Shown here: piece after piece, positions 3,940 to 21,574 of the stretch
Layout of the letters: each line of letters opens with the position of its first letter
How positions within the stretch are numbered: the first letter of the stretch is position 1
Virus record (IMG/VR): IMGVR_UViG_3300025138_000041
Location: 1 to 61,380 of that record
Source of the DNA: a virus
Taxonomy: Duplodnaviria; Caudoviricetes
Direction: 5' to 3' (one strand)
Length of the DNA stretch: 61,380 bases
Position numbers and translations under genes: made by a program
Notes under the pieces: generated by a model
Seen by the model: the letters and a program-made list of their open reading frames with translations, nothing else
The model's database searches: none
Told to the model about the DNA's origin: nothing

Positions 3940-4455
3940 ATGACCTCTAATGCTTTTAATTTATCAAACATTTTGATTAACGGAACAACTAATATAAGTT
4001 CTTCTGTTATAGCTAGTGATATAGCAGGAACATATTTGACACAAATAGCTAATCCTGCTGCACTTTCTATTGCAAATAATACACCTGGAGATAAAGTTTT
4101 TTCCACATCGAACAGTAAATTATTTTTATGGACAGGTAATGCTTGGGTAACTATGAGTACAACTAATGAGTTTCCTAATGTACCGACAGGAATATTAGAT
4201 AATTATACATTGGCTACCGATGGTACGCCTACATCTATTACTGCGGTATCAACTGATCCAGACGGTACTACTGTGACTTTTTCTTATGAGACTATAGGAT
4301 TACTTAATGAAGCTGCAATAGCACAAGCAGATAATGTATTTGTGGTATATCCTACAACAAATACTTCATACGGAGGCACTTTCGACTTAATAATAAAAGC
4401 TACATCGAATGGTGAAACTATAGGTAAAAAAACAACTTTTACTTTAAGTTTTTAG
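3940..4455 (+). CDS. virion protein, stand-alone Ig-like module
   Basis: Shares YTLATDGTPTSITAVSTDP...QADNVF module with neighbours. Confidence 0.65.
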   Translation: MTSNAFNLSNILINGTTNISSSVIASDIAGTYLTQIANPAALSIANNTPGDKVFSTSNSKLFLWTGNAWVTMSTTNEFPNVPTGILDNYTLATDGTPTSITAVSTDPDGTTVTFSYETIGLLNEAAIAQADNVFVVYPTTNTSYGGTFDLIIKATSNGETIGKKTTFTLSF

Positions 4456-6012: not shown

Positions 6013-6363
6013 ATGGCTAAGAAACCAAAGCAGTTACAAACAGAATCGCAATATGAATATCTTGATAGGGACGGAGATGGCATCATCTCTGATGAAGAAA
6101 TGGCTAATGAAAAAAGAATGATTGAGTTAGAAGATTTACGTTCTGATATGGAGAATGAAGATAAGAAACAAGATGCACAAAGAGCAATGGCTTGGTTTGC
6201 TCTTGCAGGTATGCTGCTGTATCCATTTGCTGTTGTTATTGCAGCTTGGATAGGTCTAGAGAAAGCGCCCAATATTCTTGGTGATATGGCACCAACATAC
6301 TTTGTTTCTGTTGCTGCTATCGTTGCGGCGTTCTATGCGAAAGAGGTTATGCATAAGAAATAA
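6013..6363 (+). CDS. membrane protein with EF-hand-like DxDGDG loop
   Basis: LDRDGDGIISDEE plus two hydrophobic segments. Confidence 0.7.
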   Translation: MAKKPKQLQTESQYEYLDRDGDGIISDEEMANEKRMIELEDLRSDMENEDKKQDAQRAMAWFALAGMLLYPFAVVIAAWIGLEKAPNILGDMAPTYFVSVAAIVAAFYAKEVMHKK

Positions 6364-6366
6364 AAT

Positions 6367-13054: not shown

Positions 13055-13651
13055 ATGAGAGAAGGTAATTATGATCGATTTGAATGTGTAGAAACATTGC
13101 GTGATTTTATTTTAAATGAAGAAATATATACCGCAACGGATTTCGGAATACATGATACTGCAAGATATAAACATTTGATCGAATTGGGAAACCAAGTAGA
13201 AACTGTATCTGAATTAGGTGTTTGGCAAGGCAGAACAATGGCACTTTTTATGGGACAAAATATAAAAAAAATTTATGGCGTTGATCTTGATTTGTCAAGA
13301 TTTAATAAAAAGCTTAGACGAATATTTCAGGAATATGCTAAAAAAAATAACATACAATGGGAATTAATAGAATCTACCTCAACATCTGCAAATGCTATAC
13401 GAGAAGTTGAATTACTTCATATAGATAGTTTACACACACCAACTCACTTGCAAGCCGAATTAGATTTACATTCAAAATTCGTATCTAAATATATCACGTT
13501 TCACGATACTAAGTTGGGAAATCCTTTCAATGGTACGCAATTTCAACTGTGGAGAGTTATCGAAAAATTTTTAAATGATAATAAAGATTGGCGATTATAT
13601 GAACACTATATGCTAGGAAAATGCGGACATGCAACCATAAAGAGGAAATAA
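13055..13651 (+). CDS. class I SAM methyltransferase (Methyltransf_24-like)
   Basis: ELGV..G, LLHIDSLH, FHDT. Confidence 0.75.
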   Translation: MREGNYDRFECVETLRDFILNEEIYTATDFGIHDTARYKHLIELGNQVETVSELGVWQGRTMALFMGQNIKKIYGVDLDLSRFNKKLRRIFQEYAKKNNIQWELIESTSTSANAIREVELLHIDSLHTPTHLQAELDLHSKFVSKYITFHDTKLGNPFNGTQFQLWRVIEKFLNDNKDWRLYEHYMLGKCGHATIKRK

Positions 13652-13652
13652 A

Positions 13653-14012
13653 ATGAGACTTAAAGGTAAAGTTGAAAAAGGTTGGGGACACGAAACGATC
13701 TTTGCTACAAATGATTTGTATTGTGGAAAACTTCTAGTATTTGAAAAAGCTAATTCTCAGTTCTCCATGCATTTTCATTCAGAAAAAGATGAAACTTGGT
13801 ATATACATTCTGGTATTTTTAACGTTGATTGGATAGACACTAAAGACGCATCAGAACACACTCAAGCTTTAAAAGAAGGAGATACTTGGAGAAATACACC
13901 ACTATTTCCTCACAGATTAACATGTATAAAACCAGGAACTATTATTGAAGTTTCTACGCCAGACTCTGTTGAAGATAACTATAGAATTAGTAAGGGCGAT
14001 AGTCAAAAATGA
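13653..14012 (+). CDS. cupin-fold sugar isomerase-like protein
   Basis: KGWGHE, SMHFHxxKDETW, PH, EVSTPDSVEDNYR. Confidence 0.75.
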   Translation: MRLKGKVEKGWGHETIFATNDLYCGKLLVFEKANSQFSMHFHSEKDETWYIHSGIFNVDWIDTKDASEHTQALKEGDTWRNTPLFPHRLTCIKPGTIIEVSTPDSVEDNYRISKGDSQK

Positions 14013-14947
14013 AAATATTCATCACAGGTATAGCAGGATTCATAGGTTATCATCTTGCAAGAAAGCTTTTTTCTCAAGGCCACCATGTACTAGGTATTGA
14101 TAGTTATAATCATTATTATGATGTTTCTCTTAAAAGATCACGCACCGCAAAGCTAGAAGACCTAGGAATTGAAGTTTCTTATGGCGATTTAACATTAACT
14201 ACATTTAAATCTGATTGGTATAACAAGCTTAATAATGTTGATGCTGTTGTACATTTAGCAGCATATGCAGGAGTTAGATATTCATTAGAGTTTCCTAAGC
14301 TATACATTAACAATAACATAATTGGAACACAAAATCTTATTGAAGCGTGTGAGAATTGGAATGTTAATAAAGTGCTTTATGCTTCTACATCATCCGTGAT
14401 GAATGGTAATCCTGTTCCGTGGGATGAAAACACAAAGCTATATAATCAAAAGCATCCTTATGGATATTCTAAAGTCGTGAATGAATCTCAATTTCAAATG
14501 AGTAATATTAAAAATTCTATCGGTATGAGGTTCTTTACTGTTTATGGACCTTGGGGTAGACCAGATATGGCACTTTTCGATTTCACAAAGAATATTCTTG
14601 CTGGTAATGAGATTTCAGTATTTAATAATGGTGACATGGTACGTGACTTCACATATATTGACGATATTGTAATTGGAGTAACAATTTTATTAGAACAATC
14701 AGGAAAGAACATATATAATATTGGAAGAGGTGAAAAAGTTCAACTTATGGATTTTATCCACGAAATTGAAAAGAACTTAAATCAAAAAGCAAAAATAAAA
14801 ATGGCACCTATGCATCCAGCAGACGCGAAAGAAACTTGGAGTAATACAGATAAATTAAAAGCTTTAGGTTATAATCCCGAAGTTTCTATTGCTGAGGGCG
14901 TTGAAAACTTTGTAAACTGGTACAAAGATTATTATAAGGTAAATTAA
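14009..14947 (+). CDS. NAD-dependent epimerase, UDP-glucuronate 4-epimerase-like
   Basis: TGIAGFIG, HLAAYAGVRYS, YGYSK, RFFTVYGPWGRPDMA, RDFTYIDD. Confidence 0.9.
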   Translation: MKIFITGIAGFIGYHLARKLFSQGHHVLGIDSYNHYYDVSLKRSRTAKLEDLGIEVSYGDLTLTTFKSDWYNKLNNVDAVVHLAAYAGVRYSLEFPKLYINNNIIGTQNLIEACENWNVNKVLYASTSSVMNGNPVPWDENTKLYNQKHPYGYSKVVNESQFQMSNIKNSIGMRFFTVYGPWGRPDMALFDFTKNILAGNEISVFNNGDMVRDFTYIDDIVIGVTILLEQSGKNIYNIGRGEKVQLMDFIHEIEKNLNQKAKIKMAPMHPADAKETWSNTDKLKALGYNPEVSIAEGVENFVNWYKDYYKVN

Positions 14948-15643
14948 ATGAAATCATATGCGATAACTCTTAAAGGTAACAAAATCTCAGAACAAGGGTT
15001 TGATGCTCTTTGGCTCAGTTCAAAGAAACTTGGCAATGATTTTAATATCGAAAAGTTTGAAGCGACCGATCACATAAAAGTGGGCGCTGAAATGATGCAT
15101 TGGGATCTATTTTGGAATTACCCATGGGAAGGCAAAGTTACAGACTTAGCTACGGGTTTAATAAAGAGCGCATATCCAACAGCGGTAAAGACTAAACGCA
15201 TGGCTGCAGCCGTGTCACATTTTAGGCTATGGACTGAATGTTTTGAAAAGAAAGAGCCGATACTAATTCTAGAACATGATGCAATTTTTAGAAAAAAGTT
15301 AGATTACCAGCTGCTATTAGATTCAAAATATGATATAATAGGTATTAATGAGCCGAGAGGGGCAACAAGAAAATCAGCAGAATTTCATAGATTAATTCAA
15401 AAGAACAAAAACGAAATACAATCTGTTCCATCTGTAGACGATTATAATATTCCTCAAGGTATTGCAGGAAACTCTGCATATATAATCAAGCCAGAAGCGG
15501 CAGAAAAACTAATATCGTTATGCTTCAATCATGGTCTATGGCCAAATGATGCTATAATGTGTAAGCAGTTAGTAGATAACTTAGGCGTCAGCCGAACGTA
15601 TTATACTAACATTCAAAGACTACAATCAACTACAACAACCTAG
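14948..15643 (+). CDS. GT25-like glycosyltransferase
   Basis: SHFRLW, ILILEHDA, GNSAYIIKP. Confidence 0.7.
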   Translation: MKSYAITLKGNKISEQGFDALWLSSKKLGNDFNIEKFEATDHIKVGAEMMHWDLFWNYPWEGKVTDLATGLIKSAYPTAVKTKRMAAAVSHFRLWTECFEKKEPILILEHDAIFRKKLDYQLLLDSKYDIIGINEPRGATRKSAEFHRLIQKNKNEIQSVPSVDDYNIPQGIAGNSAYIIKPEAAEKLISLCFNHGLWPNDAIMCKQLVDNLGVSRTYYTNIQRLQSTTTT

Positions 15644-15659
15644 AAAGGTCAATCTAAAA

Positions 15660-16718
15660 ATGAAAAAACTTTTAACAATCGTAGCAGCGGCTATGTTAGC
15701 GACAAGCGCATGGGCTGGGGATAAAGTTAAAGTAGGGTTCGTATATGTCGGACCAACTGGTGATCATGGCTGGACGTATCGCCATGACATTGGTAGACAA
15801 GATGTACAAGATCATTTTGGTGATCAAGTCGAAACATTTTTTGTAGAAAGTGTAAGTGAAGGACCAGATGCCGAGCGTGTAATCAACGCTATGGTCTTAC
15901 AGGGCGCAGACATTATTTTTACAACATCATTTGGATATATGGAAGCTACGTTAAAAATGGCTAACCGTTATCCACATGTTAAATTCGAACATGCTACTGG
16001 ATATAAGCAAGCAAAAAATATGTCAAGTTATGGCTTACGCTTATATCAAGCTAGACATGTTCAAGGCGTGATTGCTGGTTTAATGACTAAATCGAACAAG
16101 ATTTGTTATATTGGTGCATATCCAATTCCAGAAGTTATCCGTGAGATTAACACATATTTCATGGGTGCGCGTAGTATGAATCCAGACGTTGAAATGGATA
16201 TTGTATGGGTAAATACTTGGTATGATCCAGGAAAAGAGTCAGATGCAGCTAAAGTTCTAATGGCACAAGGTTGTGATATGGTTGCACAACATACTGATTC
16301 ACCTGCACCCATGCAGTCAGCAGAGCAACAGGGAAAGTTCGGTTTTGGACAAGCATCTGACCAAATTGCATTCGCGCCCAAAGCACAACTGACCGCAACT
16401 ATCGATAACTGGTCACCTTACTATATTCGTAAAGTGCAAGCAGTAATTGATGGTAATTGGGAAAGTGAGGACTATTTTGGACATATGAACGAAGGTGTTG
16501 TTATGATGGCACCATTTACAAATATGCCAGATGAAGTTCGTAGCATTGCGGCTGATATTATGCAACAGATTAGTGACGGTGAATATTTCGCTTTCACTGG
16601 ACCAATCAAAGATCAATCAGGCGAAATTCGTATTCAAGCTGGAAAGGTAGCTACAGACGGCGAGTTGAACAGCATGAATTATTACGTCGAAGGAATTACC
16701 GCAAGATTTCCAAATTAA
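15660..16718 (+). CDS. BMP/PnrA-family ABC transporter substrate-binding protein (purine/nucleoside)
   Basis: Signal peptide; KVGFVYVGP.GDHGWTY.HD.GR, TTSFGYM, HATGYK, QHTDSPA. Confidence 0.9.
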   Translation: MKKLLTIVAAAMLATSAWAGDKVKVGFVYVGPTGDHGWTYRHDIGRQDVQDHFGDQVETFFVESVSEGPDAERVINAMVLQGADIIFTTSFGYMEATLKMANRYPHVKFEHATGYKQAKNMSSYGLRLYQARHVQGVIAGLMTKSNKICYIGAYPIPEVIREINTYFMGARSMNPDVEMDIVWVNTWYDPGKESDAAKVLMAQGCDMVAQHTDSPAPMQSAEQQGKFGFGQASDQIAFAPKAQLTATIDNWSPYYIRKVQAVIDGNWESEDYFGHMNEGVVMMAPFTNMPDEVRSIAADIMQQISDGEYFAFTGPIKDQSGEIRIQAGKVATDGELNSMNYYVEGITARFPN

Positions 16719-16743
16719 TTTTTCAAATATTTTAAATTAAGTA

Positions 16744-16778
16744 TTGACACTAGTAGAATCATCTGCTAGTGTCTTTTT
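16744..16778 (+). promoter_or_regulatory. early promoter overlapping an intrinsic terminator
   Basis: TTGACA-N17-TAGTGT; 12-bp inverted repeat gacactagtaga/tctgctagtgtc followed by T5. Confidence 0.65.
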
Positions 16779-16806
16779 GTATCAAGAGAGAAAGAGAGAA
16801 ATCGAA

Positions 16807-17013
16807 ATGTTTGAAGTTGGAATGGGATTTATAAGAAAGTACGCCACAGAAGTTGCTGTAGGAGAGATTACATCAATCCATCAAGATGCTGACGGCGAAA
16901 CTCTAATAGATGTTATGTTTGAAGATGGTGCGACAAAAGTTTATACTGAGAACTGCGTGATGCAAAATCTGGGACGGCGCATGATTGTTACTGAAACTTC
17001 TTTTGCCAAATAA
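16807..17013 (+). CDS. hypothetical early protein (start reassigned to ATG 16807)
   Basis: Track start lies in the promoter; purine-rich leader precedes this ATG. Confidence 0.6.
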   Translation: MFEVGMGFIRKYATEVAVGEITSIHQDADGETLIDVMFEDGATKVYTENCVMQNLGRRMIVTETSFAK

Positions 17014-17027
17014 TAGGGAATCTTATA

Positions 17028-17234
17028 ATGCAATTTGTAAAAACTGTGAAAGAATATGCTTTAAATAATTATGAGCAAGATGGTTGGGATATTCTCATTG
17101 AATGTTATGCCGACGATGAAATCCAAGAAGTTATTGGCAATGCTAATAATTCTAATGAAGCAATATCTAAAGTTAAAAATCATTTAAAGCCACAAAACGA
17201 CTATCGAAGTGAAATAATGTCTGAGGCCTTCTAA
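17028..17234 (+). CDS. hypothetical protein
   Basis: AGGGA RBS. Confidence 0.6.
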   Translation: MQFVKTVKEYALNNYEQDGWDILIECYADDEIQEVIGNANNSNEAISKVKNHLKPQNDYRSEIMSEAF

Positions 17235-17272
17235 TTTCAAGAATAACTTTGCTAAATACATCTAATGAGTTT

Positions 17273-17296
17273 AGGAGCCTTAGGGCTCCTTTTTTT
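17273..17296 (+). terminator. intrinsic terminator
   Basis: aggagcc-ttag-ggctcct followed by T run. Confidence 0.8.
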
Positions 17297-17313
17297 GAGG
17301 AGAAAAAAAGAGA

Positions 17314-18132
17314 ATGACGCAACTAATAAACCCACGTAAATTTACTAACGCAGTGTCCCTATTGAGGGACTTTTTTTTGACTAAAGGCTTTGAGGAAGTA
17401 CATACGCAAAATAGATTGAGTATCTTAGCCGCTTGTGAAGATCCTGAAAACGTAGCAAGTTATAATTATGAAGGCCAAGTTTGGCCATTACCTCAAACTG
17501 GTCAGATGTGGCTAGAACATGAATTACTTACCAGCCCCGATTCAAAGGGGTTTTTTTGTGTCTCAACGTCATATCGACAAGAGCCTAACGCAATTCCTGG
17601 TCGTCACGATACGATCTTTCCAATGTTTGAATTTGAAATGCCTGGTGACATTAATGATTTGAAACGTATGGAATATGAACTTTGTGATTTTTTAGGTTTC
17701 GGTACTATCACAGAAAAAACATATAATGAATGGCAGCAACATTATGGAGTAAGTGCTAGAACAGAACTAGATGCACAACACGAATTAGCAATGCAAGCAT
17801 CATTTGGTCCTTGTATGATTACAGACTTTCCAGAAATGACGAGTCCGTTTTGGAATATGAGTCGTAACGAAGATGGTACTAGCCGAAAGATTGATGTTAT
17901 TCTTGGTGGTATGGAAACAATTGGTAGTGCCGAACGAAGTATTGATAAAGAACAGATGAGAGATACATTTCATACAATTTCTGATGGAGAGTACGCAGGA
18001 CTTATTAAGAGTTTATTCGGAGATGATAGAGTTGAAGCGGAACTTGAAAAGTTTCTTGAATTTGATTTCTTTCCAAGAGTTGGCGGCGGTATCGGGATGA
18101 CAAGAATGATTGCAGCCCTAGACAAACTGTAA
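17314..18132 (+). CDS. class IIb (AsnRS/AspRS-like) aminoacyl-tRNA synthetase catalytic core lacking the N-terminal anticodon-binding domain
   Basis: Motif 1 RDFF..KGF.EV.T, LPQTGQMWLE, motif 2 SYRQEP..RH..FPMFEFEM, ETIGSAER, motif 3 GGGIGMTRM; only 272 aa. Confidence 0.85.
   Translation: MTQLINPRKFTNAVSLLRDFFLTKGFEEVHTQNRLSILAACEDPENVASYNYEGQVWPLPQTGQMWLEHELLTSPDSKGFFCVSTSYRQEPNAIPGRHDTIFPMFEFEMPGDINDLKRMEYELCDFLGFGTITEKTYNEWQQHYGVSARTELDAQHELAMQASFGPCMITDFPEMTSPFWNMSRNEDGTSRKIDVILGGMETIGSAERSIDKEQMRDTFHTISDGEYAGLIKSLFGDDRVEAELEKFLEFDFFPRVGGGIGMTRMIAALDKL
17355..17378 (+). terminator. intragenic terminator-like hairpin in the AsnRS-like gene
   Basis: gtccct-attg-agggac followed by T8. Confidence 0.6.
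17534..17557 (+). terminator. second, weaker intragenic terminator-like hairpin
   Basis: gcccc-gattcaaa-ggggt followed by T run. Confidence 0.4.
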
Positions 18133-18137
18133 ACTAA

Positions 18138-18244
18138 TCTGGGGTGGTGGAATTGGTAGACACGCGGTACTGTTTATACCGTGAATATATACTAGCGTAA
18201 ATGTATATTTATTCATGCAGGTTCGACTCCTGCCCCCAGAGCCA
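18138..18244 (+). tRNA. non-canonical tRNA-Asn(GUU) with class II-type D arm and 35-nt variable arm
   Basis: Acceptor tctgggg/ccccaga + G + CCA; anticodon arm cggta-ctGTTta-taccg; T arm gcagg-ttcgact-cctgc; variable region 18182-18216 forms a hairpin. Confidence 0.85.
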
Positions 18245-18256
18245 AAGGAAATAATA

Positions 18257-19120
18257 ATGATACCTATAATTGATTTTAATTCACCATACGCAAATCAACA
18301 TATTGAAGATGCCTATACATCTGTAGGTTTTGCCGTGTTTACTAATTGTTTGACAAAAACTGAAAACTCTGATATGATTAGTTGGTTTAGTGAAATGAAA
18401 GCATTTTTTAATTTACCTGATGAAATAAAGAAAAAGTATCCATATGAAGGAGACACTAATCTAGGCTATAGTATGGTAGGAGATGAAAATGTTGATCCTA
18501 CTGCACCGAAAGATATTAAAGAAAGTTTTAATTACAATAACACAAGAATGAGTGAATATCTCTGGCCAAGAGAATTGCCAGGATTTAAAACAACTGCAAT
18601 GCAGAGCATTGATGTAGCTGATAAACTCACACTTAGAATATTGAGCAGATTTGATGAAATTTTAAAATGTGGATCTACACTTGTAGATGCTCATATGCAG
18701 CCATTTAATACTACAAGGGTTATTCATTATCCCGCATATGAAGGAGAAATAACAGACCGACAAATGAGAATTGGTGAACATAGTGACTACGGAACCATTA
18801 CACTACTTTGGCAAATAAACGATGTTCCAGGATTGCAAGTACAAGATTTAAAAGGCGAATGGCATCCAGTGCCATATAATGTCGATGGTGTAGTTGTGAA
18901 TATTGGTGATCTACTTCAGAGATGGACAAATGATTACTTTAAAAGCACAAAACATAGAGTAGTTAATTCACATATACATAAAACTAGATTCAGTATGCCA
19001 CATTTTGTTGATCCTACTCCGGGTACTATAGTAGATAATTTACGTTTTCATGAAGCTTCTAAGTATCCGCCTATTGAGAGTAAAGAATATTTGATGTGGA
19101 GACTAGCACAAAGTTATTAA
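18257..19120 (+). CDS. 2OG-Fe(II) dioxygenase, isopenicillin-N-synthase family (start reassigned)
   Basis: IPIIDF start, HSDYGTITLL, VVNIGDLLQRWTND..KST.HRV, RFS; AAGGA RBS. Confidence 0.9.
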   Translation: MIPIIDFNSPYANQHIEDAYTSVGFAVFTNCLTKTENSDMISWFSEMKAFFNLPDEIKKKYPYEGDTNLGYSMVGDENVDPTAPKDIKESFNYNNTRMSEYLWPRELPGFKTTAMQSIDVADKLTLRILSRFDEILKCGSTLVDAHMQPFNTTRVIHYPAYEGEITDRQMRIGEHSDYGTITLLWQINDVPGLQVQDLKGEWHPVPYNVDGVVVNIGDLLQRWTNDYFKSTKHRVVNSHIHKTRFSMPHFVDPTPGTIVDNLRFHEASKYPPIESKEYLMWRLAQSY

Positions 19121-19131
19121 GGTTATACATT

Positions 19132-19908
19132 ATGAAATTGACATTATTAGGATATGGATTTGTAGGCAAAGCTGTTTACAACGTTTTAAAAGATCATCAT
19201 GATATCACAATTGTTGATCCAGAATACAACGATAATAAGATAGAAGATCAAGGTGATTCAGATGGTTATATCATTTGCTTGCCAACACCAGAAGGTAAAA
19301 ATGGTGAATGTGATATGAGCATTATATTTGAAATGCTCAATAGAATTCCAGTTGCGACTATAAGTCCATCAAATATTCTTATAAAGTCAACTATGTCAAT
19401 GGAAGGCTGGAGAGAAATTGAACAAACGTACAATCATTTAAACATATGTTTTTCTCCAGAATTTTTAACTGCAGCAAATGCAAATGAAGATTTCAAAAAA
19501 CAGACAGAAATGTTTTTTGGTGGAGGTGATGAATATTTTTGGATAGATATTTTTAATCCATGTAAAAAATTTACACCAATCTTTTCTCCAATACCCGAAC
19601 TTATCTTAATGAAGTATGTTAGAAATTCTTTCTTGGCAACAAAGGTAGCATTTTTTAATGAAATTTACGATCTTTGTTCTAAAATGAATTTACAGTACGA
19701 CGAAGTAAGTTACTTAGTGGGTATGGATAAAAGAATAGGATATTCACATATGAAAGTTCCTGGTCCAGATGGCAGAGGATTTGGTGGTGCTTGTTTTCCT
19801 AAAGACACGAAGGCACTATACAATTCTGCAAAACTTAAAGATCATTCTTTAGACATTCTTCACGCGGTTATCACTTCAAATGAAAAGGTAATAAAAGACA
19901 ATGTTTAA
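19132..19908 (+). CDS. ugd: UDP-glucose 6-dehydrogenase-like protein, short form without the C-terminal domain
   Basis: GYGFVG, ICLPTP, IKST, SPEFL, K...N.FLATKV.FFNE, GFGGACFPKD. Confidence 0.85.
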   Translation: MKLTLLGYGFVGKAVYNVLKDHHDITIVDPEYNDNKIEDQGDSDGYIICLPTPEGKNGECDMSIIFEMLNRIPVATISPSNILIKSTMSMEGWREIEQTYNHLNICFSPEFLTAANANEDFKKQTEMFFGGGDEYFWIDIFNPCKKFTPIFSPIPELILMKYVRNSFLATKVAFFNEIYDLCSKMNLQYDEVSYLVGMDKRIGYSHMKVPGPDGRGFGGACFPKDTKALYNSAKLKDHSLDILHAVITSNEKVIKDNV

Positions 19909-20899
19909 ATTTTTTACTTCAAAACACTGGATGCATTGGTCAATCTTCGGTACACTCTTAATTTTATTTTCTACGTGGTATCAGGTACAAATTGATGTTG
20001 CGATAAATGAATGGTTTGGTGATTTTTATAATAATCTCCAAAAAGCGTTAGCTACACCTGGTAGCATTACTGCCGCAGAGTTTTATGGATCATTAGCATC
20101 TTTCGGTTGGCTAGCAGTAAAGTTTATTGCTATTGCAGTAGTCACTAAATTTTTTGTATCTCATTGGATATTCAGATGGCGAACAAGTATGGTTGAGTAT
20201 TATCATGATAAGTTTAAATATGCTAGAAGTCTAGAAGGTGCGTCACAACGTATCCAAGAAGATACTATTAAATTTGCTAGAATCATGGAAGATTTGGGAG
20301 TTGGTCTGATGGAGTCAATCATGACTTTAATTGCTTTCATTCCTATTCTCATTGGTCTATCTGCGGCAGTTACACATTTGCCAATATTAGGCGAAGTTTC
20401 TAATTCTCTTATGTGGGTAGCACTTGCAACGGCATTAGGAGGTACCCTATTGCTTGCTGCAGTAGGAATCAGACTACCTGGAATTGAGTATGACATTCAA
20501 AAACGTGAAGCTGGTTACCGTAAAATTTTAGTCCATGCAGAAGATGATCCTAAAGCAGGTCAACCCAAAACTCTTGCGGAATTATTTGATTGGGTAAGAG
20601 ACATACATTTCAAATCGTATTTTCACTATGCATATTTCAACATGGCAAGATATTCGTATTTTCAAGGTATGGTTCTTGTTCCATATCTTGCATTGGGTCC
20701 TACAATTCTCGCGGGGACAATTACATTGGGTGCTCTACAACAAACAATAAGAGCGTTTGGTAGAGTAGAAAGTAGTTTACAGTATGTTGTTAAATCTTGG
20801 GCTGTTGTAGTTGAATTGATAAGTGTTTGGAAAAGATTGAGAGAATTTGAAGTTCAAATCAAGGTAGGCGAATCTTCAGATCCACGTTGGAGAGGTTAA
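19901..20899 (+). CDS. sbmA: SbmA/BacA-like peptide transporter
   Basis: Multiple TM helices; FRWRTSM.EYY, EGASQRIQED, EAGYRK.LV.AED. Confidence 0.85.
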   Translation: MFKFFTSKHWMHWSIFGTLLILFSTWYQVQIDVAINEWFGDFYNNLQKALATPGSITAAEFYGSLASFGWLAVKFIAIAVVTKFFVSHWIFRWRTSMVEYYHDKFKYARSLEGASQRIQEDTIKFARIMEDLGVGLMESIMTLIAFIPILIGLSAAVTHLPILGEVSNSLMWVALATALGGTLLLAAVGIRLPGIEYDIQKREAGYRKILVHAEDDPKAGQPKTLAELFDWVRDIHFKSYFHYAYFNMARYSYFQGMVLVPYLALGPTILAGTITLGALQQTIRAFGRVESSLQYVVKSWAVVVELISVWKRLREFEVQIKVGESSDPRWRG

Positions 20900-20905
20900 A
20901 AATAA

Positions 20906-21574
20906 ATGATAAAAGCATATGTGATAACAATAAGGGCTTTACCTAAATCCGTTAGATCCGCGAGTAGATGTATTATGTCGGCTGCAGATTATGATTTGGA
21001 AGGAGTTGAAATGTGGCAAGCAACTATTCCAGAAGATAATCCTGAAGAAATATTAAATGATCGAGGAATACCTACTCAAGGATTTTCTGAAATATACTCT
21101 AGACCTGAAAGATGTATGTCTGCTTTTGTTTCACATTATAAATTGTGGGAAAAATGTGCGGAAGAAAATGATGATGTTTATTTGATCTTTGAACATGATG
21201 CTGTTGTCGAAAATCAGATACCAGTAATACCAAAGATGCACTCACTTAAAGATCCGATGCTTTGCTCAATAGGTGCTCCGTCTTATGGCAAATTTAATAT
21301 TCCAACAAAACTTGGTGTTAATAAACTCATTTCAAAAGAATATTTACCTGGAGCACATGCTTATATGTTAAATTCTCCTGCAGCAAAGGCTCTAATTGAA
21401 AGAGCAAAAGTTGATGCAGGTCCTACAGACGTTTTTCTTCATAATAATAGATTTGATTTTTTATATGAATTGTATCCTTATGTTGCTGTAGCAAGAGATA
21501 GCTTTACTACAATTCAAAGAAAAGAGGGTTGTTTGGCAAAACACTCTTACGGAGATAAATATGAAATCATTTAA
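20906..21574 (+). CDS. GT25-like glycosyltransferase
   Basis: SHYKLW, IFEHDA, GAHAYML. Confidence 0.7.
   Translation: MIKAYVITIRALPKSVRSASRCIMSAADYDLEGVEMWQATIPEDNPEEILNDRGIPTQGFSEIYSRPERCMSAFVSHYKLWEKCAEENDDVYLIFEHDAVVENQIPVIPKMHSLKDPMLCSIGAPSYGKFNIPTKLGVNKLISKEYLPGAHAYMLNSPAAKALIERAKVDAGPTDVFLHNNRFDFLYELYPYVAVARDSFTTIQRKEGCLAKHSYGDKYEII

Follow-up and report, generated by a model that had tools for sequence, protein, structure and literature searches.

Can a tRNA that keeps the features by which asparagine is assigned to it, yet breaks rules that nearly all tRNAs obey, still be chiefly a translation adaptor? The question is raised by a 107-nt tRNA gene with a GUU anticodon in the IMG/VR virus record IMGVR_UViG_3300025138_000041 (Duplodnaviria; Caudoviricetes). 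The whole 61,380-nt record was analyzed and is referred to here as the window; it is a 61-kb fragment with an estimated completeness of 30%. Its source is a T4-like cyanomyovirus, the nearest named relatives of which are the Prochlorococcus phages P-SSM7, P-SSM2, and P-SSM5 (~71% nucleotide identity over one gene). Directly upstream of the tRNA lies a gene for an enzyme that resembles the catalytic core of asparaginyl-tRNA synthetase (AsnRS). We tentatively favor the reading, to which we give a little less than an even chance, that the RNA serves as a dedicated, tRNA-shaped carrier of asparagine or aspartate for this neighboring enzyme and that decoding is secondary.

Structure and conservation of the tRNA

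The elements of the gene are as follows, with tRNA numbering where letters carry a number.

18138-18244, + strand: tRNA(GUU) with encoded CCA, 107 nt (Rfam RF00005 and covariation)
18138-18144 paired with 18234-18240, + strand: acceptor stem, 7 bp (sequence parse)
18145-18164, + strand: positions 8-27, a 3-bp D stem and a tRNA-Leu-type D loop (19 of 20 bases as in phage tRNA-Leu)
18165-18169 paired with 18177-18181, + strand: anticodon stem, 5 bp (sequence parse)
18170-18176, + strand: anticodon loop CUGUUUA (C32, U33, G34 U35 U36, U37, A38)
18172-18174, + strand: anticodon GUU
18175, + strand: U37
18182-18216, + strand: variable region, 35 nt, with one unpaired base, 5 + 5 bp interrupted by a UU bulge, a 10-nt loop, and two unpaired bases (fold)
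18217-18233, + strand: T arm, 5 bp, loop UUCGACU (Rfam, parse, and covariation)
18241, + strand: discriminator G73
18242-18244, + strand: encoded CCA

The Rfam tRNA model RF00005 matches 18138-18241 across its full length (model positions 1-71) with 44.4 bits against a gathering score of 29, which places the RNA within this family. The E-value is 1.4e-7 in a 2.5-kb search and 8e-10 over the whole 61-kb record, and 32 nt of the variable arm are treated as an insertion in the match. ARAGORN calls two other tRNAs in the window and passes over 18138-18244, the arm of which exceeds the length that the program accepts. The first-pass annotation, made from the letters alone, had called the arm unusually long and proposed detection by such programs as a check; detection succeeds with the Rfam model while ARAGORN is blind to the gene.

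Folded as a single sequence (-33.1 kcal/mol), the tRNA takes the cloverleaf shape, and its arm closes into a hairpin that has 10 bp, a 2-nt bulge, and a 10-nt loop. The z-score of this fold is only -2.08, and 3 of 200 shuffles fold equally well; as this is weak evidence when taken alone, the case for a real structure rests on relatives. In a set of 31 distinct relatives with mid-sized arms, evaluated against 500 shuffles and slid controls, 95.9% of the paired cells are filled, compared with 85.1% in the shuffles and only 40-61% in the slid controls. Compensatory double changes occur in 17 of 30 pairs where 8.9 are expected from the shuffles. Neither observed value is attained by any of the 500 shuffles.

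The constraint extends over the whole molecule. Every pair of the four canonical stems is formed in all 31 relatives, with compensatory changes, so the earlier argument that clean stems and an encoded CCA speak against decay is borne out. The arm helix is 87.5% paired and includes four double-change pairs, with A-U/G-U toggles that leave the UAUUUA of its 3' strand constant. When each arm is folded alone, 87 of the 98 distinct arms of at least 13 nt give a single hairpin of at least 4 bp. A contig from an RNA library likewise differs from the window in both partners at 18142/18236 and at 18148/18162. The G18-G19 elbow, T loop, G73, and CCA end are all intact in the window tRNA. On these comparative grounds, 18138-18244 is a genuine, structurally constrained tRNA.

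Its body is of the class II type. Positions 8-27 are identical at 19 of 20 bases to tRNA-Leu genes of related phages, and this segment scores 18 in comparison with Leu against 12 for the next best tRNA type. With class II tRNAs (Leu, Ser, bacterial Tyr, Sec), and with phage tRNA-Leu especially, the RNA shares a long hairpin flanked by one and two unpaired bases and a 3-bp D stem. In contrast to phage tRNA-Leu, which has a Leu anticodon, A73, and G1-C72, it carries GUU, G73, U1-A72, and an arm that is too long for ARAGORN. The body of a class I tRNA-Asn, with a 4-bp D stem, a 4-5-nt variable loop, and A37, is not found here. A conventional tRNA-Asn on a related viral contig (L263, 1501-1576) shares GUU, U1-A72, G73, and CCA with the window tRNA, but its D stem is 4 bp, its variable loop 5 nt, and its anticodon loop CUGUUAA (A37) where the window has a 3-bp Leu-type D arm, 35 nt, and U37. 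This tRNA stands apart from the enzyme gene of the same contig, which has no adjacent tRNA. The tRNA-Asn genes of P-SSM7, P-SSM2, and P-SSM5 belong to the same family as the window tRNA: they follow a homologous ‘tRNA ligase’ gene and have the loop CUGUUUA, G73, U1-A72, and a Leu-type D arm. They differ in being 85-86 nt long, with a 17-nt variable region and no encoded CCA, whereas the window tRNA has a 35-nt region and encodes CCA.

Variable regions of the family span 4-39 nt. Among 107 distinct sequences, six have regions of at most 7 nt, 51 of 13-23 nt, 35 of 24-31 nt, and 15 of at least 35 nt; an arm of at least 13 nt is therefore present in 101 of the 107 and accompanies the class II, tRNA-Leu-like body. 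The 35-nt form is limited to five distinct sequences whose enzymes are at least 89% identical to that of the window. The motif UAUUUA, which lies on the 3' strand of the window arm, is common to 39 of the 47 distinct arms of at least 24 nt. The other eight, unrelated in sequence, accompany more distant enzymes (<70% identity to that of the window), which indicates that long arms arose more than once. Arm-size class changes at least 23 times on an enzyme tree built with FastTree. A recent, non-conserved insertion had been named in advance as one outcome that would overturn the first-pass interpretation of the arm. That description fits the extra length, so 35 nt does not hold as a conserved feature, and it does not fit the arm itself. 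The 35-nt arm is thus best described, from the sequences compared, as a lineage-specific extension of an older class II arm.

The anticodon loop departs from convention at the positions beside the anticodon. Few molecules are as tightly constrained as tRNAs: U33 and a purine at position 37 are near-universal, and long variable arms are confined to the tRNAs for Leu, Ser, Tyr, and Sec. N6-threonylcarbamoyladenosine (t6A), a modification of A37 in tRNAs that read ANN codons, cannot be carried by U37. Scoring of 112 distinct family sequences gives U in 89, A in 14, G in 8, and C in 1 at position 37 (a pyrimidine in 90), and U in 97, C in 8, A in 6, and G in 1 at position 33 (non-U in 15). The U37 reported at first pass is thus real and the majority state of the family. 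At least 16 switches between purine and pyrimidine at position 37, and at least six switches at position 33, are required on the enzyme tree. As a control, we took every other tRNA called by ARAGORN in the same viral loci; from 87 distinct calls, 16 mis-parsed family members were removed, and the remaining non-GUU tRNAs have U33 and a purine at 37 in 71 of 71 cases. The window tRNA has U33 but, with U37, lacks the elongator-type combination.

The elements by which asparagine is assigned are kept where these positions are relaxed. With the anticodon left unconstrained, GUU is recovered in 133 of 141 parses, the other eight reflecting register errors or a second tRNA that lies further downstream. 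G73 is carried by 140 of the 141 parsed tRNAs (the lone exception is a mis-picked tRNA-Cys) and U1-A72 by 103 of 105 distinct family members, and 87 of 108 distinct sequences also encode CCA. The anticodon and G73 are identity elements for AsnRS. All three elements of bacterial tRNA-Asn identity (GUU, G73, and U1-A72) are found in the window tRNA, and bacterial GatCAB reads U1-A72 and the D loop, according to the available text of the source (PMC2811023).

The neighboring enzyme and its linkage to the tRNA

The enzyme gene and the tRNA are arranged as follows.

17314-18132, + strand: AsnRS-like class IIb synthetase catalytic core, 272 aa, without anticodon-binding domain (PF00152)
18133-18137, + strand: spacer, 5 nt, from the enzyme stop codon to tRNA position 1

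The linkage of the two genes was assessed in 170 viral places, comprising 169 loci and the window. The automatic parse was corrected by eye for five loci with a bulged T stem that the parser had missed, and for two (L021, L162) that show the 5' part of the tRNA. A tRNA(GUU) lies downstream of the enzyme in whole in 149 of the 170 places and is cut by the contig end in two; 17 places lack it and two are undetermined, so that 151 of 168 determinable places are linked. The gap between enzyme and tRNA has a median of 20 nt over 144 loci and is at most 50 nt in 108. Flanking genes differ between linked places, and the pairing persists for enzymes with as little as ~42% identity to the search query (L092). 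One locus (L014; enzyme 301-1113, 85% identical) has, directly after the enzyme, the same oxygenase gene that follows the pair in the window, with the tRNA missing between them; it represents either a clean natural deletion or the state before insertion.

Enzyme relatives number at least 596 on viral contigs, and enzyme clusters number more than 8,000 at 90% identity and 671 at 50% identity. Among 50,697 phage records, the enzyme is found in P-SSM2, P-SSM5, P-SSM7, and three uncultured megaphage records, and the tRNA type, by blastn, only in the same three phages and two of the three megaphage records. The 107-nt window tRNA gave no blastn match in this phage collection; the shorter P-SSM7 relative used as query did match. 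A short-arm family member searched by blastn against E. coli genomes gave chance T-arm matches only (E 7).

The enzyme, annotated ‘tRNA ligase’ in P-SSM2 and P-SSM7, matches Pfam PF00152 with an E-value of 3.2e-15 over profile positions 26-292 of 308, and the proteins of P-SSM7, P-SSM2, and P-SSM5 are 64-70% identical to it. A profile of 70 family members searched against the Protein Data Bank finds AsnRS first (2xti, E 2e-16) and then archaeal-type aspartyl-tRNA synthetase (AspRS). Residues R88, E90, R97, H98, R208, and R264 are invariant in the family alignment. No variation is seen there in the arginines of motifs 2 and 3, or in the one that grips the side chain of the amino acid. A family-specific insertion lies between these two motifs. 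In alignments, QTGQMxLE falls opposite QSSQLYLE of AsnRS, where AspRS has a lysine. The protein therefore has the class IIb core, the motif arginines, and the pocket stretch of AsnRS, and lacks the N-terminal OB-fold anticodon-binding domain. No NCBIfam model comes near its cut-off with this enzyme, the asnS models scoring 20.7-22.3 bits against cut-offs of 342-414. Because it consists of a catalytic core only, the predicted 272-aa protein cannot read an anticodon in the usual way. It belongs to PHROG 29758, for which the function category is given as unknown, and a protein atlas query with the enzyme returned only its own viral clusters.

Bare class II cores are also seen in other paralogues that have no anticodon-binding domain, namely archaeal AsnA (3p8t) and GenX/EpmA (3a5z, 3g1z), though the phage profile matches true AsnRS far better than it does AsnA (4e-7) or GenX (7e-5). 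Archaeal-type asparagine synthetase A was considered as an identity for the enzyme and rejected (NF005055, 20.2 bits against a cut-off of 389; 3p8t only E 4e-7). A further such paralogue, GluQRS, acts on tRNA-Asp. We know of none of these paralogues that travels with its own tRNA gene. In the available text of one comparative study (PMC3037559), a table of sporadically distributed host-like genes includes the enzyme under ‘tRNA ligase’, cluster 194, and the available text of the P-SSM2 genome paper (PMC1079782) is silent on both the tRNA and the enzyme. We found no description of the pair or of a long-arm tRNA-Asn in the literature as available, supplementary tRNA tables aside; only annotations and table rows were encountered. 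Taken together, the feature is, as read from its sequence and its relatives, a tRNA of chimeric class II / Asn design with a non-canonical loop, coupled to an anticodon-blind synthetase look-alike.

Relatives of the enzyme occur at 413 places in cellular genomes, mostly of Patescibacteria (57-61% identity), and otherwise in Aureispira, Weeksellaceae, and Rickettsiales. A TIR-domain gene adjoins the homologue in an Aureispira genome (locus L189, 1234-2148, - strand). In five enzyme-bearing cellular genomes, asnS is above cut-off in none, and gatB is present in all five, above cut-off in four. A search for the tRNA-Asn of these five genomes with the phage tRNA as DNA query returned only T-arm matches to other tRNAs. 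In the Patescibacteria sampled, asnS is above cut-off in 19 of 151 genomes; the enzyme is found in none of 149 further genomes besides the two already known to carry it, and is a sporadic accessory gene in this group.

Several relatives are associated with pyrimidine synthesis. One fused protein (P0121, 661 aa) carries dihydroorotate dehydrogenase (DHODH) at its N terminus, and another (P0143, 588 aa) carries orotidine monophosphate (OMP) decarboxylase at its C terminus. In three alphaproteobacterial loci, two of them of Rickettsiales type, the enzyme is first in an operon with pyrF, a small phosphoribosyltransferase, and a DHODH-like gene; prs, encoding phosphoribosyl pyrophosphate synthetase, comes next in the two loci that reach that far. 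The operons lie at these positions.

L251, 371-3721: alphaproteobacterial operon
L252, 2450-5801: alphaproteobacterial operon
L202, 2450-5671: alphaproteobacterial operon

Among the five enzyme-bearing cellular genomes, aspartate carbamoyltransferase was found in none, OMP decarboxylase in one, and DHODH in two, with no DHODH found in the other three. On the viral side, P-SSM7 and P-SSM2 carry pyrE, that of P-SSM2 being mentioned in the available part of its genome paper (PMC1079782), and a DHODH-like gene is present on two of three large viral contigs. The link with pyrimidine genes is recurrent, not universal, and makes a purely translational role of the enzyme less certain.

Carrier, decoder, or neither

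How would a carrier explain these observations? On the reading that we favor, the class II, tRNA-Leu-like body would bear the bacterial tRNA-Asn identity set and would be co-transcribed, as its dedicated partner, with the AsnRS-like enzyme. Selection would keep the elements recognized by an Asx-type synthetase and by the host amidotransferase, along with the elbow and CCA end of the tRNA, and would relax those beside the anticodon on which the ribosome depends (U33 and a purine at 37). The tRNA would receive asparagine, or aspartate for later amidation, and then be presented to the enzyme; reading of AAC and AAU would be at most secondary. The 35-nt arm would be a clade-specific lengthening, maintained as a hairpin and dispensable for the core function. 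It is the retention of identity elements alongside the relaxation of ribosome-facing positions that leads us to favor a carrier. Of the roles proposed at first pass, that of an aminoacyl carrier more than a decoder agrees with this conservation pattern and with the U33 and purine 37 of all 71 control tRNAs; for frameshifting, decoy, or regulatory roles we found no evidence.

Several observations weigh against a dedicated carrier. The enzyme needs no dedicated tRNA, as the 17 unlinked viral loci show, and two phage records estimated to be 85% and 97% complete have the enzyme and no tRNA whatever. In cells, 78 of 80 loci keep the enzyme without an adjacent tRNA-Asn, and the two that have one are both on contigs of metagenome-assembled genomes with high identity to phage versions. 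What the enzyme itself does is uncertain, given the pyrimidine fusions and operons of its relatives. The window copy itself has U33, the canonical loop CUGUUAA occurs in 10 of the 112 distinct relatives, and the invariant GUU is equally expected of a decoder. The counts of change at positions 33 and 37 come from the FastTree enzyme tree and are inflated if tRNA and enzyme recombine. Charging, binding, and use off the ribosome are inferred from sequence. The sole evidence on the RNA side is one 151-nt contig of depth 4 from an oligo-dT library.

The main rival, possible if doubtful, is that the tRNA still decodes AAC and AAU in a hardened form: the altered loop and bulky arm would resist host tRNA-cutting nucleases, or host enzymes generally, and the anticodon-blind AsnRS-like enzyme would charge it with asparagine via the acceptor end. 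GUU is invariant, the T loop, elbow, G73, and CCA are intact, and P-SSM7 has the pair within a cluster of tRNA genes (Ile, Arg, Leu). The enzyme retains the motif 2/3 arginines and the AsnRS-like QTGQMxLE. With asnS below cut-off and gatB present in the five enzyme-bearing cellular genomes, a direct route to Asn-tRNA would be a gain. Changes in the anticodon loops of phage tRNAs have been proposed to provide escape from host anticodon nucleases (van den Berg et al. 2023, PMC10264068); among these nucleases is colicin E5, whose targets are the tRNAs of the Tyr/His/Asn/Asp group. The family resembles these tRNAs in altering the loop and keeping the anticodon; it differs in changing U33 and position 37, which are fixed in the other tRNAs of these phages, and in being tied to an enzyme gene. 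To our knowledge, no tRNA nuclease is known for the hosts concerned. U37 excludes t6A, and U33 is also lost in 15 of 112 sequences. None of the 71 other tRNAs is changed at 33 or 37, so these phages do not as a rule evade nucleases by changes there. Cellular relatives of the enzyme are linked to pyrimidine genes and not to translation genes, and its absence from the 149 further Patescibacteria genomes does not suit a standard replacement for AsnRS.

It is less probable, and in our judgment unlikely, that the RNA is no translation adaptor at all and is a handle for asparagine made or held by the non-discriminating AspRS and GatCAB of the host, whose recognition elements are exactly those conserved. 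On this account the enzyme would consume tRNA-bound asparagine for synthesis of the pyrimidine ring during infection, so that nucleotide precursors would be made through a tRNA-dependent step in place of the carbamoyl-phosphate, aspartate carbamoyltransferase, and dihydroorotase steps. The pyrimidine links of the enzyme's relatives are what keep this metabolic version of a carrier alive.

An ordinary supplementary tRNA-Asn for an AT-rich phage, adjacent to the enzyme through shared inheritance in a mobile cassette, is improbable. It is annotated as such in P-SSM7, P-SSM5, and P-SSM2, and tRNA genes mark variable regions of cyanomyovirus genomes (PMC3037559, in its available text). Nevertheless, the linkage holds in 151 of 168 determinable places despite differing flanks, the body, arm, and loop are unlike those of the conventional phage tRNA-Asn on the related contig, and positions 33 and 37 are unlike those of every other tRNA in these loci. 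A shade less probable again is RNA punctuation acting in cis, in which the tRNA would be a processing site for RNase P or RNase Z, or a stabilizer that ends the enzyme mRNA and frees the next gene. Its placement is suggestive: it lies within an operon, 5 nt after a stop codon and 12 nt before the next start, with no promoter-like or terminator-like site of its own standing out. Such a function, however, has no need for an invariant GUU, G73, and U1-A72, nor for a CCA encoded in 87 of 108 sequences. That the gene is a decaying or non-functional remnant, as ARAGORN's silence and the modest fold z-score might suggest, is extremely improbable, being contradicted by covariation in every stem and by retention of the gene at 151 places beside such divergent enzymes.

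Genomic setting and significance

Two further features border the pair.

18257-19120, + strand: 2-oxoglutarate-Fe(II) oxygenase, the next gene; probable start ATG 18257, 12 nt after CCA
17273-17290: terminator-like hairpin upstream of the enzyme gene

The mechanical start of the oxygenase reading frame, ATG 18215, falls inside the tRNA; the in-frame ATG at 18257, preceded by AAGGAAA, is likelier. No terminator-like site was found between the enzyme, tRNA, and oxygenase, and no promoter-like or terminator-like site of the tRNA's own stands out. Expression was checked in assembled contigs of public runs, of which two RNA-library runs hold small parts of the window. The 151-nt contig mentioned above spans 18117-18265 gap-free, arm included; it is compatible with a co-transcript and may be DNA carry-over. 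No contig joint skipping the arm was found in the public-run contigs, which are uninformative on the mature RNA.

The pair lies in an island (13055-21574) of sugar-modifying and transport genes. These include a methyltransferase, a cupin, an NAD-dependent epimerase/dehydratase, two GT25 glycosyltransferases, and a PnrA-like binding protein, as well as a UDP-glucose/GDP-mannose dehydrogenase-like gene and a full-length SbmA/BacA-like transporter (E 3e-131). The location differs in P-SSM7, where head and tail genes flank the pair.

Automatic annotation is wrong or empty at this tRNA gene in these phages. ARAGORN mis-parses 16 distinct family members as Asp(atc), Glu(ctc), Gly(acc), Ile(aat), Asn(att), or ‘Stop(tta)’, and misses the longest-arm members entirely. 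The RefSeq record of P-SSM2 (NC_006883.2) places tRNA-Asn PSSM2_199 at 6281-6366 of locus L002, inside a coding sequence. The real tRNA is at 4270-4355 of that locus, ~2 kb away and right after ‘tRNA ligase’, and is unannotated; the misplacement looks like coordinates left from another version of the record.

The family described here is large, and breaks three tRNA rules (U33, a purine at 37, and the restriction of long arms) yet keeps the set that specifies its amino acid. The tRNA is present at 151 viral places, and its partner enzyme in thousands of protein clusters from ocean metagenomes. If the two form a private charging system, nature would here provide an orthogonal synthetase-tRNA pair. 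Should the tRNA instead act as carrier for a metabolic enzyme, abundant marine viruses would be using aminoacyl-tRNA outside translation in a new way.

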